Positions 50,417-54,072 of a stretch of 64,000 bases of DNA are shown piece by piece. Positions within the stretch are counted from its first letter, which is position 1. Each line of letters opens with the position of its first letter. The notes below the pieces were generated by a model. The model did not search any database. It was given only the letters and a program-made list of their open reading frames with translations, and had not been told where the DNA came from. A program made the translations under genes and the position numbers. Source of the stretch: Gemmatimonadales bacterium (lineage in GTDB: Bacteria; Gemmatimonadota; Gemmatimonadetes; Gemmatimonadales; GWC2-71-9); assembly GCA_037189525.1 (NCBI GenBank), contig JBBCJC010000005.1, forward strand, positions 480,001-544,000, written 5' to 3'.

Positions 50417-51829
50417 ATGACGACCGAAGTCAGTCTTCTCGCGCAGGTCGACGCCATGTTCGACCAGGCCGCGGCCCTGACACCGCACGATCCGACTTTG
50501 CTCGCGCATATCAAGGCATGCAATGCCGTCTATCAGATGACCTTTCCGATCCGCCGCGACGACGGCACGATCGAAGTGATCCATGCCTGGCGCGCAGAGC
50601 ACAGCCATCACCGGATGCCGACCAAGGGCGGCATTCGGTACTCGATGGCGGTGACGGCCGATGAAGTGATGGCGCTGGCTTCGCTGATGACGTTCAAGTG
50701 CGCGCTGCTGGACGTGCCCTTCGGCGGCGCCAAGGGCGGTATTCGGATTGCGCGCCACAAATATTCCGACGCCGAACTCGAGCGGATTACCCGCCGCTAC
50801 ACCTTCGAGCTCTGGCGCAAGAACTTCATCGGACCCGGCGTCGATGTCCCGGCGCCAGACTACGGCACCAGTTCCCGCGAAATGGCCTGGATTGCCGACA
50901 CCTACCGCAGCCTGAGCAACGACCTCAACGCGATGGCCTGCGTGACCGCCAAGCCGGTTTCGCAAGGCGGTATTCGCGGCCGGAACGAAGCGACCGGCCG
51001 AGGCGTGATGTTTGGCCTCCGGGAAGCCTGTAACGTCGCCGAGGATATGAAGAAACTTGGCTTGGGCCCCGGCCTGGCCGGAAAACGAATCGTGATTCAG
51101 GGACTCGGCAACGTCGGGTATCACGCCGCCAAGCTGCTCCAGGAGCAGGGCGCCGTCCTGGTCGGCCTGGCGGAGTATGAGGGCGCCATCAGCAATCCCA
51201 AAGGGCTGGACGTCGACCGGGTCATGGAGCACCGGAAAAACACCAAATCGATCCTCGGATTTCCGGGAGCCCAGGATATCCCGCAGTCGGCAGCTGCGCT
51301 CGAACTCGAGTGCGACATCCTCGTCCCCGCCGCGCTCGAAAACGTGATCACCGCCGAGAATGCGCCCCGCATCAAGGCCAAGATCATCGGCGAAGCGGCC
51401 AACGGGCCGACCACGGCCGAAGCTGACGGCATCCTCAAGAGCCGGGGCGTCTACATCATTCCCGACTTTTACCTCAACGCAGGCGGGGTGACCGTCTCGT
51501 ACTTCGAATGGCTCAAGAACCTCTCGCACGTCCGCTTCGGCCGGATGCAGCGGCGATTCGAAGAACAATCCAACCTTGGCATCCTGAACCTGGTGCAGCA
51601 GAGCACCGGACGCAGCATCGACGCGGCCGAGTTGAGCCGCATTGCTCATGGCGCGAGCGAAGAAGATCTGGTCAACTCCGGCCTCGAAGACTCCATGGCC
51701 GTTGCCTACCACCAGATTCGCGATATCCTGATCCGGCCCAAGGGCCCGACCGATCTCCGAACCGCGGCGTTCATTTCCGCGATCGACAAGATCGCCGTGA
51801 GCTATCAGGAGCTGGGCCTGTTCCCGTAA
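50417..51829 (+). CDS. Glutamate dehydrogenase (Glu/Leu/Phe/Val family)
   Basis: PTKGGIRY, VPFGGAKGG, DVPAPD, QGLGNVG, EAANGP, LNAGGVTVSYFEW. Confidence 0.95.
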   Translation: MTTEVSLLAQVDAMFDQAAALTPHDPTLLAHIKACNAVYQMTFPIRRDDGTIEVIHAWRAEHSHHRMPTKGGIRYSMAVTADEVMALASLMTFKCALLDVPFGGAKGGIRIARHKYSDAELERITRRYTFELWRKNFIGPGVDVPAPDYGTSSREMAWIADTYRSLSNDLNAMACVTAKPVSQGGIRGRNEATGRGVMFGLREACNVAEDMKKLGLGPGLAGKRIVIQGLGNVGYHAAKLLQEQGAVLVGLAEYEGAISNPKGLDVDRVMEHRKNTKSILGFPGAQDIPQSAAALELECDILVPAALENVITAENAPRIKAKIIGEAANGPTTAEADGILKSRGVYIIPDFYLNAGGVTVSYFEWLKNLSHVRFGRMQRRFEEQSNLGILNLVQQSTGRSIDAAELSRIAHGASEEDLVNSGLEDSMAVAYHQIRDILIRPKGPTDLRTAAFISAIDKIAVSYQELGLFP

Positions 51830-51846
51830 GCGAAGGCGGATGAACG

Positions 51847-51885
51847 AAGCGGCCCGTGCGACCGGCAAGGTCACACGGGCCGCTT
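51847..51885. terminator. Hairpin between convergent gdh and tRNA-Cys
   Basis: AAGCGGCCCGTG / CACGGGCCGCTT stem with short T runs on both strands. Confidence 0.6.
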
Positions 51886-51903
51886 TGCCTTTGGACAGAA
51901 AAG

Positions 51904-51974
51904 AGGCGCCGACCGGAATCGAACCGGTGATTAGGGTTTTGCAGACCCTTGCCTTGCCACTTGGCCACGGCGCC
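51904..51974 (-). tRNA. tRNA-Cys (GCA), CCA not encoded
   Basis: GGCGCCG acceptor, AGGGT-CTGCAAA-ACCCT anticodon arm, GGTTCGATTCC T-loop, U73 discriminator. Confidence 0.97.
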
Positions 51975-51978
51975 CGGA

Positions 51979-53205
51979 CTATCGGTCGAGCAGTTCCTCG
52001 ACGATCGCGATGTATTCCCGCACCAGCGCATCGTGGTACGGCCCGCTGGCCTTGGCCGCGAAGCCGCTGCGCACGGCGTGTACCCGCCCTTCCCGATCGA
52101 GGAAGAACGTCGCGGGCCAGGTATTCAGGTTGACGGCCTGCGGCAGCTTGGCAGCCACGTCGCTCGGCTCTCCCGCCACCAGGTACGGATACTCGATTCC
52201 GTACTTCGCGACGAAGGCGCGCAACCGGCCGAGATCCTCCAGCTGTTCCGCCTCTTCGAAATCGAGCGCCACCACTTCCAGTCCCCGATCCCGATAGCGG
52301 CGGTACAGGTCCGCCAGGAACGGCGCCTCGTCGTGGCAATTGGGGCACCAGCTGCCTGTCACGTTGACTACGACCACCTTCCCGGCAAACCGCGCGTCCC
52401 GCTCGGTTACCAGACGCCCGTCGAGATCGGGAAAGGCAAACCGGAACGGCTCAGCCGAGTCGCGAACCCGGGTGTGAGTCGCGGCATCGGCCGGCTCGGG
52501 CAAGCCCCGCGCCCGGGCCAGATCGGGACGAAGCGCCTCGAAGATCCGAGGTGCTCCGCGGGGCGAATGCAGGGTGAGCCGGAGCGTTCCATCCGCCTGC
52601 GGATCGACCTCCAGCCGCGCCGGCCGAGTCCCCGCGAAATGACTGAGCTCGAATCGGGTGCCCGTCCAGGTGCCGGTCAGGGCGCCTGCATCGCCATCGA
52701 CCCGAAGGATGGTGGCCGACACCGCCACTCCCTGCTGCCGGACCACGAACCGCCAGGCGCGCTCGCCCTTGGCGGTTTCGGCCGGCAGGTACCACTCACC
52801 ATCGATGTTGGGCGCCGGGACGGCAGATCGCGCGGTTGCCGTTCCGACCGGCGCGGCCTCGACCGGATGGAATCCGCGCCGTTCGTTGCCATAGCGGCCC
52901 CGGAAGGCCCCGTCCGAGAGCACCCCTTCGAACCTCGTCGCAAGGTGCGCAAATTCGACCACCACGGAATCGCCCTGTCGGCGCACGGCGGTCGAGGTCA
53001 CCGGCACGTCGCCGTTGTAGAGCCGGACCAGCCGGCGCCCGGACTCCGAAGCCCACTCGAGCGGAAAGTCGATGGCGAGCGAGTCATACCGAATCGTTCC
53101 GGTCCAGCGGCCCTGCGGCTCCTGCGCTTCGAGCAAAGCCCCGCCACCCGCCGCGAATCCGAGGACGAGGGCAGACCATGTGGCGCGTTTGAACGTCGCT
53201 GACAT
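51979..53205 (-). CDS. TlpA-family thiol-disulfide oxidoreductase with N-terminal extension
   Basis: GSWCPNCHDE, WPATFFLDREG; signal peptide; ATG overlaps the upstream stop. Confidence 0.9.
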   Translation of the reverse strand: MSATFKRATWSALVLGFAAGGGALLEAQEPQGRWTGTIRYDSLAIDFPLEWASESGRRLVRLYNGDVPVTSTAVRRQGDSVVVEFAHLATRFEGVLSDGAFRGRYGNERRGFHPVEAAPVGTATARSAVPAPNIDGEWYLPAETAKGERAWRFVVRQQGVAVSATILRVDGDAGALTGTWTGTRFELSHFAGTRPARLEVDPQADGTLRLTLHSPRGAPRIFEALRPDLARARGLPEPADAATHTRVRDSAEPFRFAFPDLDGRLVTERDARFAGKVVVVNVTGSWCPNCHDEAPFLADLYRRYRDRGLEVVALDFEEAEQLEDLGRLRAFVAKYGIEYPYLVAGEPSDVAAKLPQAVNLNTWPATFFLDREGRVHAVRSGFAAKASGPYHDALVREYIAIVEELLDR

Positions 53206-53678
53206 CAGCGGCCTCCCGGCAGCTGCGCAACGAGCGTAGCCGTCCGCGGTGGCAGGCAGGTGGTCTCGGTGCAGGCCTGATAACGAACTTTGAGCGCGGC
53301 ACCGGCCACAGGCGCCGGCGAGCCGACCCGAACCGGCACCACGAATCGCGGCCGTCCGTCGTAGACCTCGACCGGAATCCCGAACGCCGACGTTTCCTGA
53401 ACGATCGGCGCCGGGCCGGTGACCGCTCCGGCCAGGGAAACCGACTCGGCACCGGGCGCGATTCGCAGTGGAAACGGCCCGCCAGACGTTTGTGTCAGCG
53501 AATACACTTTCCACCCGGGGTCGATCGAGGCCGTCACCGCCAGGGTGACCACCTCGGCATCACCACCACGGGTGGGTACCACGGCTACCGACCAGCGAAC
53601 CGGATCGGGACCCTGGGCCACGACACCCGACACCACGACCGCGGATAGCCAGACAACCAGCTTCAGTGTGACCTGCAT
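53205..53678 (-). CDS. Stand-alone DsbD N-terminal-domain protein
   Basis: IDPGWKVYS, YQACTETTCLPP; signal peptide; GAGG RBS. Confidence 0.85.
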   Translation of the reverse strand: MQVTLKLVVWLSAVVVSGVVAQGPDPVRWSVAVVPTRGGDAEVVTLAVTASIDPGWKVYSLTQTSGGPFPLRIAPGAESVSLAGAVTGPAPIVQETSAFGIPVEVYDGRPRFVVPVRVGSPAPVAGAALKVRYQACTETTCLPPRTATLVAQLPGGR

Positions 53679-53741: not shown

Positions 53742-53775
53742 AACGAAAACGGCCCACCCGTGAACGGGTGGGCCG
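53742..53775 (-). terminator. Intrinsic terminator in the leader of the dsbD-N/tlpA/tRNA-Cys unit (attenuator)
   Basis: CGGCCCACCCG-ttca-CGGGTGGGCCG-TTTTCGTT. No long gene upstream on this strand (the neighbour is divergent). Confidence 0.82.
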
Positions 53776-53819
53776 GAAGCGTTTGACTGCGCGCCGCCGT
53801 GGCGCAATCGACTGTCGTA

Positions 53820-53891
53820 CTATAGCCGCGCGCCGCCCCACCCGTTTCCGAGGGGACAACAACAGACAGCCTGAGCGCGGACCAGCGACAT
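53820..53891 (-). CDS. Polycysteine attenuation leader peptide MSLVRAQAVCCCPLGNGWGGARL (alternative in-frame ATG at 53942)
   Basis: TGT-TGT-TGT run, GGAG RBS; contains AACGGGTGGG, complementary to the terminator 5' arm. Confidence 0.78.
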   Translation of the reverse strand: MSLVRAQAVCCCPLGNGWGGARL

Positions 53892-54072
53892 GGATGATGC
53901 TCCGAACGTAAATGAACTCACGTCGGACAATAATCGGGACATGACGAACTTGTAAAGTGCGCCCCGGACACCCCGCCGTGACGGACAACACCTCGCGGAG
54001 AATCGGGTCGCGACGATAACTTGATGGATCCAACCGCCCCATCACTCCACATCACCTCTGCGAGCCGCGACG

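Follow-up and report, generated by a model that had tools for sequence, protein, structure and literature searches.

RESULTS

A leader with consecutive cysteine codons precedes two redox genes and a tRNA-Cys gene

The minus strand of the window (the whole 64,000-nucleotide stretch of Gemmatimonadales DNA that we analysed) carries a leader element followed by two protein-coding genes and a tRNA gene (Table 1). Similar proteins in the database (P0005, 82% identity; P0053) bear labels that place the host in the Gemmatimonadales. The first gene, dsbD-N, encodes a stand-alone DsbD N-terminal domain protein whose two Cx4C cysteines are invariant in our alignment A2, and its stop is overlapped by the start of the second gene, tlpA. 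The TlpA/ResA-like product of tlpA matches ResA (E = 4.6e-20), yet it falls under every NCBIfam cut-off. Its structure model (pLDDT 95) has an N-terminal all-beta region, for which neither sequence searches nor Foldseek returned a solved relative; the sequence and fold matches of this protein span only the thioredoxin domain. A search for the subfamily gave 5260 matches among 8000 candidates, many of them to the thioredoxin domain only.

By eye, the hydrophobic N-termini of both proteins look like signal peptides. One natural protein (L256:230-1891, 553 aa) joins DsbD-N to the TlpA-like protein, and the database contains another such fusion (P0022), which supports the notion that the two work together. 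Two DsbD_TM genes lie elsewhere in the genome, and the proteins that they encode could supply electrons to the redox pair.

The unit ends in a tRNA-Cys gene. We found no sigma-70-like promoter for it in 51700-52500, and it is probably co-transcribed with dsbD-N and tlpA. Two tRNA-Cys genes are present in the genome of the window (G000) and in each of its close relatives G005 and G021, where one of them occupies the same position after tlpA. All three congeners with the operon thus carry an extra copy, whereas the five congeners without it carry a single tRNA-Cys (5/5). We saw this link only in the genus of the window; none of the loci from genus g28 or the acidobacterial side shows it. A third tRNA-Cys call by ARAGORN (C5 559999) lies antisense within a protein gene and was rejected.

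Table 1. Features of the leader element and of the genes downstream of it (window coordinates)
Feature	Position	Strand	Basis or remark
Sigma-70-like promoter (TTTACA, 18 nt, TATTGT)	53927..53956	-	1 found vs 0.3 expected
Shine-Dalgarno-like GGAG of the leader	53900..53903	-	about 8 nt upstream of the leader ORF
Leader ORF (P0001), 23 aa, MSLVRAQAVCCCPLGNGWGGARL	53820..53891	-	internal Cys run
Sensor codons TGT TGT TGT (segment 1)	53856..53864	-	inside the 23-codon leader ORF
Protector hairpin 1:2	53832..53860	-	folding; -17.4 kcal/mol
Segment 2 (antiterminator strand), pairs with 53781-53763 (10+3+3 bp)	53829..53846	-	folding and duplex test
Spacer hairpin, arms 53809-53802 and 53792-53785	53785..53809	-	folding; -12.7 kcal/mol
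Intrinsic terminator, 11-bp stem (53775-53750) and tail TTTTCGTT (53749-53742)	53742..53775	-	terminator scan and folding
dsbD-N, stand-alone DsbD N-terminal domain protein, 157 aa, Cx4C	53205..53678	-	PF11412, E 2.3e-13
tlpA, TlpA/ResA-like thioredoxin-fold protein, 408 aa, WCPNC	51979..53205	-	AhpC-TSA, E 2.4e-16
tRNA-Cys(GCA), 4 nt after the tlpA stop	51903..51974	-	second copy in genome

The leader has the parts of an attenuator

The sequence-only reading had drawn attention to three TGT codons at 53864-53856. The run is where it was placed, and it belongs to a real short ORF (53891-53820). This ORF is not leaderless, since the -10 element ends at 53927, the ATG lies at 53891 and the Shine-Dalgarno (SD) sequence falls in between. 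In the other two frames across the run (Val and Leu), translation would meet no stop ahead of the terminator, and we rejected both as leaders.

The protector hairpin proposed at 53857-53835 is present, with limits that were drawn too short (53860-53832). Likewise, the perfect 10-nt pairing was recovered between AACGGGTGGG in segment 2 (53846-53837) and CCCACCCGTT in the terminator arm (53772-53763, minus strand), and a 6-bp extension had been missed, bringing the antiterminator to 16 bp (53846-53829 with 53781-53763), closed around the spacer hairpin in the stalled fold. The antiterminator duplex (-31.2 kcal/mol, z = -3.6) was matched by 0 of 300 shuffles. The spacer hairpin lies between segment 2 and the terminator arm, as had been claimed; it is seen in every modelled nascent state and brings the two together. 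The 11-bp terminator with its TTTTCGTT tail was also found (53775-53742): 10 of its 11 base pairs are G-C (-24.5 kcal/mol), its U tract is interrupted, and it ends 64 nt before dsbD-N.

The leader region as a whole folds more stably than its shuffles (z = -2.82; 2 of 200 shuffles equally stable). Terminator-like sites in the 3-kb region number 3, against 2.1 +/- 1.4 by chance, which is not above chance, and the case therefore rests on architecture and conservation. No Rfam family matches over the leader element at E up to 5.

The modelled switch depends on the position of the ribosome

To model the switch, we folded a nascent transcript that stops within the first bases of the terminator 3' arm, with the ribosome footprint masked and its edge assumed to lie 9 nt past the A-site codon. 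In this masking model, occupancy of the terminator 5' arm is 0.91 with the ribosome on any of the Cys codons, 0.07 with the ribosome at the stop, and 0.40 without a ribosome. The resulting switch of 0.84 compares with a mean of 0.08 when the stretch from the Cys run to the terminator is shuffled (0/40 shuffles match). As controls, the genome's own trp leader gives 0.85 stalled and 0.23 at the stop, and the his leader gives 0.79 versus 0.55, a poor separation. In silico, the leader thus has an antiterminator that excludes the terminator; it is available while the ribosome sits on the sensor codons and hidden once the ribosome has reached the stop.

Across 24 homologous leaders, the mean switch is 0.59 versus 0.12 for shuffled sequences. 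Several are weak, with shuffles doing as well in 22/40 (L263), 12/40 (L296) and 9/40 (L266) cases, and the antiterminator duplex test gives p > 0.05 in 12 of the 24. L279 and L297 were left out of the masking model, as no core terminator was found in them.

On the full transcript at equilibrium, the terminator wins in every state, the stalled ribosome included. Therefore, the switch must be kinetic, and by folding a shortened transcript our model takes kinetic control as given. Such control is accepted for classical attenuators. The same equilibrium result would be expected of a terminator that acts constitutively, releasing a small RNA or peptide, with the genes expressed by leak-through or from another promoter, and 11 of the 28 acidobacterial-side homologous genes described below do have no leader. 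We nevertheless regard a constitutive terminator as highly improbable, given that an antiterminator is conserved at ribosome-footprint distance in two unalignable RNA families and that no second promoter-like site was found between the terminator and the downstream genes. Geometry, the masking model and conservation in two phyla instead favour the earlier proposal that a ribosome stalled on Cys would open the protector so that the antiterminator forms.

Close relatives keep the leader and a core of the antiterminator

In a DNA search of 61 genomes, two others, G005 and G021, gave good matches. Retained in both are the promoter hexamer, the SD, the start, the CCCP motif, the stop, and the terminator stem and tail. 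Specifically, the -35 hexamer does not vary and most of the -10 region persists despite divergent flanks, and the leader ORF has equal length. The GGAG, the three TGT codons and the terminator stem with its tail are invariant in all three genomes, and the terminator loop varies; in the spacer hairpin, the 3' arm is invariant and the 5' arm varies.

The full 10-mer of the pairing is not conserved, as each congener has lost its AAC/GTT part on one side. What is kept in both is the 7-nt core (GGGTGGG/CCCACCC) together with the extension. Because core and extension are invariant, the three closest genomes show conservation but no covariation of the antiterminator.

The leader design recurs before one TlpA-like subfamily in two phyla

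We searched for the N-terminal region of the TlpA-like protein and found it in 16 of 401 genomes of the phylum and, within genus g28, in 6 of 87. A leader with 3-8 Cys and a terminator are present at each of the five g28 loci that have upstream DNA, as well as at the metagenome locus L256. Together with the three congeners these make up the nine loci with upstream DNA in the strongly supported tlpA clade of the window, every one of which (9/9) has a Cys leader and a terminator. CCP recurs in most of these leaders.

On the acidobacterial side, the phylum of G725 gave matches in 4 of 251 genomes, and the order of G896 in 27 of 201. Upstream DNA is available for 28 of the 30 loci; a Cys-cluster ORF is present in 17 of the 28, a terminator in 16 and the two together in 15, and 11 have no leader. 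Two (L279 and L304) have a leader without a strict terminator, and three have CxC only. At L313, a promoter is followed almost at once by a terminator, with no leader upstream of tlpA, possibly a decayed attenuator. L309, L312 and L347 were left out of the counts because they have no upstream DNA. Since the homologues are related, the leader counts are not independent. Mapped on the protein tree, the leader label changes six times, with L348 wrongly marked leaderless, and the pattern is patchy.

Of 16 loci selected on the terminator alone, 14 have a short ORF with CC or CxC; the expected number is 1.1, and the highest among 200 shuffles was 5. No residue other than Cys was enriched likewise in these loci. 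The homologous leaders contain 2 to 8 Cys, and the rest of the peptide is not kept. Pairing polarity differs between the two sides: segment 2 is G-rich and the terminator arm C-rich in the clade of the window, with the reverse on the acidobacterial side, where the protector forms directly behind the Cys run and paired changes can be seen sequence by sequence.

Covariation in orthologues had been suggested as a check. In 14 alignable sequences, the terminator is 96.8% paired and 3 of 11 pairs changed on both sides, for a covariation score of 0.32 versus 0.20, inflated by kinship. The terminator pairs thus covary, whereas the antiterminator of the three closest genomes carries no compensatory change. 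As MAFFT did not bring segment 2 into register, antiterminator covariation was read per sequence rather than counted from an alignment.

Among the Cys codons of 25 homologous leaders, 73 of 113 are TGT and 40 are TGC, compared with TGT at 1248 of 5526 (23%) in long ORFs of the genome. TGT is the wobble-read codon for the GCA anticodon. The strong TGT bias, and hence the recurring UGUUGU, could also point to a riboswitch or a protein-binding antiterminator in which the Cys frame is incidental. Near-total nucleotide identity between the Cys run and the terminator in the three closest genomes, synonymous sites included, would agree with this. Yet across the homologues the reading frame persists with its start and stop although the sequence is not conserved, both Cys codons are used, Cys-cluster ORFs far exceed expectation at terminator-selected loci, pairing polarity is reversed between phyla, and Rfam gave no match at gathering score over the homologous tlpA leaders (9 loci). 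In addition, genus g28 has a SAM riboswitch at metY and nonetheless a Cys leader at tlpA. Recognition of the RNA itself is therefore very unlikely in our judgement.

Other search handles added little. With the DsbD-N domain, a leader and terminator were found only in the window, G005 and L256 among 90 loci. The distant full-length tlpA paralogues L004-L012 show no convincing leader, and the six that we inspected in detail lie immediately behind another gene. No new locus came from the family of G057 (2/251). A "CCCC" ORF at L260 lies inside another gene and was discarded. Altogether, judged from sequence, the leader design precedes one predicted exported TlpA-like subfamily in two bacterial phyla, a tie that is new here.

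Further leaders and gene context point to cysteine supply

A genome scan (375 terminator-like sites, 326 ORF-terminator pairs) revealed further Cys leaders upstream of metY-metX and phhA-like genes and of two SusC-type units. Another, which lacks a clear terminator, lies before a cysK-like gene and brings the further leaders to five. By sequence, consecutive Cys codons thus occur at six loci of one genome. Three of the further leaders were found conserved in both congeners, and about a dozen more CC-containing ORFs from the scan were taken as chance.

One of these leaders is in the window (5152-5072 minus, terminator near 5043-5017). The ORF that it precedes (4988-4245 minus) is phenylalanine-4-monooxygenase-like (PhhA-like; E = 7.5e-57, below cut-off). 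Both congeners, G021 and G005, retain the MCC motif of the leader and the terminator. The cysK-like leader (G000 C3 +, about 809905; gene about 810084-811075) has a promoter, 29 codons, two CC pairs and no strong intrinsic terminator, and it may work on translation. The metY-metX leader (L284; G000 C5 + 194724) contains Met-Met-Cys-Cys and has a terminator; it too is kept in G021 and G005. In g28, a SAM_alpha riboswitch replaces the leader at metY, while tlpA keeps its Cys leader. At three g28 loci (L287, L288 and L289), the dsbD-N/tlpA unit lies back to back with a cystathionine gamma-synthase gene, whose 5' region resembles SAM_alpha, under gathering score in the two loci checked.

The two remaining leaders, both with terminators, precede a SusC-type receptor unit (L286, G000 C5 + 976781; kept in G021 and G005) and a choice-of-anchor-B-like gene followed by a SusC/SusD-like pair (L285, G000 C2 minus 314795). 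A choice-of-anchor-B-like protein from a family akin to this C2 gene is also encoded in the window (57779-55728 minus). Finally, a His leader precedes a hisG-like gene (G000 C1 minus 590654) and a Trp leader precedes DAHP-synthase-like and trp-like genes (G000 C3 minus 116483), all named from their translations. These show that the genome uses classical attenuation.

In 17 acidobacterial-side units, the genes after tlpA include DsbD-N (4, Pfam), 1-Cys peroxiredoxin (2), and, as sulfur genes (3/17), a cysteine-synthase-like gene, a TauE-CysD-CysN set and a rhodanese (1 each). We detected no cysD or cysN in the genome of the window (tblastn at 1e-15; 98% complete), a result compatible with scavenging of reduced sulfur by the cell. 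The gene context points to cysteine supply as the signal; oxidants or thiophilic metals could trip the switch indirectly by draining cysteine. The targets had been described as redox rather than biosynthetic. The first two genes do encode redox proteins, but the unit ends in tRNA-Cys, related leaders precede cysK-like and metY-metX genes, and homologous operons include sulfur genes.

As the peptide is not conserved outside the Cys cluster, the codons rather than the peptide appear to be read. Sensing by the nascent peptide would mean that the Cys cluster binds a metal, an electrophile or an oxidant and arrests the ribosome in a CruR/CutF- or TnaC-like manner, with the hairpins only relaying the arrest. 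The thiol-redox proteins encoded downstream and the recurrent CCP agree with such sensing, as does the precedent of CruR (PMC9426467) and CutF (10.1101/2022.11.11.516240), Cys-bearing upstream ORFs that, according to the accessible text of these reports, sense copper through Cys motifs and control envelope-related genes via the ribosome. However, the same text describes longer nascent-protein sensors with CXXC and C-terminal arrest motifs, CutF being exported, that act through Rho (CruR) or on translation via an SD stem-loop (CutF), whereas the present leader has an intrinsic terminator and no CXXC, C-terminal arrest motif (RAPP included), proline-rich motif or signal peptide. Moreover, Pro is missing from most acidobacterial-side leaders, and similar leaders precede cysK-like and metY genes. 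The Cys of a 23-residue peptide remain within the ribosome exit tunnel, which also argues against ligand binding by the Cys cluster. We thus consider nascent-peptide sensing quite unlikely and favour the reading of codons.

DISCUSSION

Our results are best explained by transcription attenuation of the trp/his type, in which a translating ribosome senses charged tRNA-Cys and cysteine is the likely signal; we hold this explanation to be probable. Translation of the leader, coupling of transcription to translation and the Cys-tRNA signal would all be part of it. The transcript would begin some 30 nt ahead of the leader. When cysteine is plentiful, the ribosome would reach the stop at 53820 and cover segment 2; the terminator could then form, and transcription would end near 53745. 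When Cys-tRNA is scarce, the ribosome would wait on the TGT run, covering segment 1 and opening the protector. Segment 2, which starts about 11 nt past the last Cys codon, would stay free of the stalled ribosome and could pair with the terminator 5' arm before the 3' arm is made, allowing polymerase to continue into dsbD-N, tlpA and the extra tRNA-Cys gene. Without a ribosome, the protector would form and termination would be favoured.

The attenuation mechanism itself is textbook. The classical attenuators (trpL, hisL, thrL, leuL and pheL), as far as they are described in the accessible part of 10.1101/834739, share a short leader with a run of cognate codons, a protector 1:2, an antiterminator 2:3, a terminator 3:4 with a U tract, and the prediction that a stall leads to read-through. 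The leader described here differs in that Cys would be sensed, in the spacer hairpin between segments 2 and 3, in that its first genes encode predicted exported thiol-redox proteins and its unit ends in the cognate tRNA, and in its hosts (Gemmatimonadota and Acidobacteriota) and the lack of a matching Rfam family.

The closest published parallels likewise use consecutive Cys codons. The accessible text of 10.1101/834739 states that uORF attenuation for cysteine was previously undescribed and reports a mycobacterial "Cys ribulon" (Ms5788A, Rv2334A) of polycysteine sORFs at several loci per genome, with targets that include cysK, a sulfurtransferase and the redox gene mshA. Among Cys-controlled genes, a redox target thus has a precedent. 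The mycobacterial ORFs are described there as leaderless and translational in mechanism, with a C-terminal Cys tract that sequesters the downstream SD and no transcription termination; in contrast, the present leader has an SD, an internal Cys run paired with segment 2, and an intrinsic terminator. The predicted Cys leaders of Mycobacterium, P. acnes cys and B. longum cbs are similarly short ORFs with Cys runs before cysteine genes, for which, in the part of PMC1262725 available, no terminator hairpins are reported and Rho is proposed, whereas terminator and antiterminator are present and conserved here. From what is accessible of PMC2965389, almost no acidobacterial attenuators have an assigned function, and the available portion of PMC4833913 holds nothing specific. 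Our literature search, which covered subscription journals thinly, turned up neither a Cys attenuator with an intrinsic terminator nor any report of Cys leaders upstream of tlpA or dsbD genes. The Lyubetsky group reportedly made wider attenuator surveys, possibly including Cys cases.

Cysteine is a gap in the textbook list of intrinsic-terminator attenuators, given that the published Cys leaders we found act on translation or lack terminators. As read from the DNA, further new points are an RNA element that comes in two families with opposite polarity, the extra tRNA-Cys that travels with the operon, and a putative Cys regulon of six loci in one genome. The element is also compact (about 215 nt) and portable.

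The presence of this leader design before a redox family hints that the proteins help to obtain sulfur, and the two redox proteins presumably act in response to sulfur shortage. Extending this further, it is conceivable, though on balance doubtful, that the exported pair (a stand-alone DsbD-N and a beta-domain TlpA/ResA subfamily) serves Gemmatimonadota and Acidobacteriota as a module against cysteine starvation. Such a module would reduce external disulfides or polysulfides to usable thiols in a cell without detected cysD/cysN. It would be wired by ribosome-read Cys attenuators of two RNA families and opposite polarity, within a genome-wide transcriptional Cys regulon that raises its own tRNA-Cys. 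If an attenuator controlled the very tRNA that it senses, this would create a feedback loop for which the trp and his operons offer no example. For the large, uncharacterised TlpA-like subfamily, which occurs in abundant, mostly uncultured soil and water bacteria, a sulfur-shortage response would be the first functional hint.
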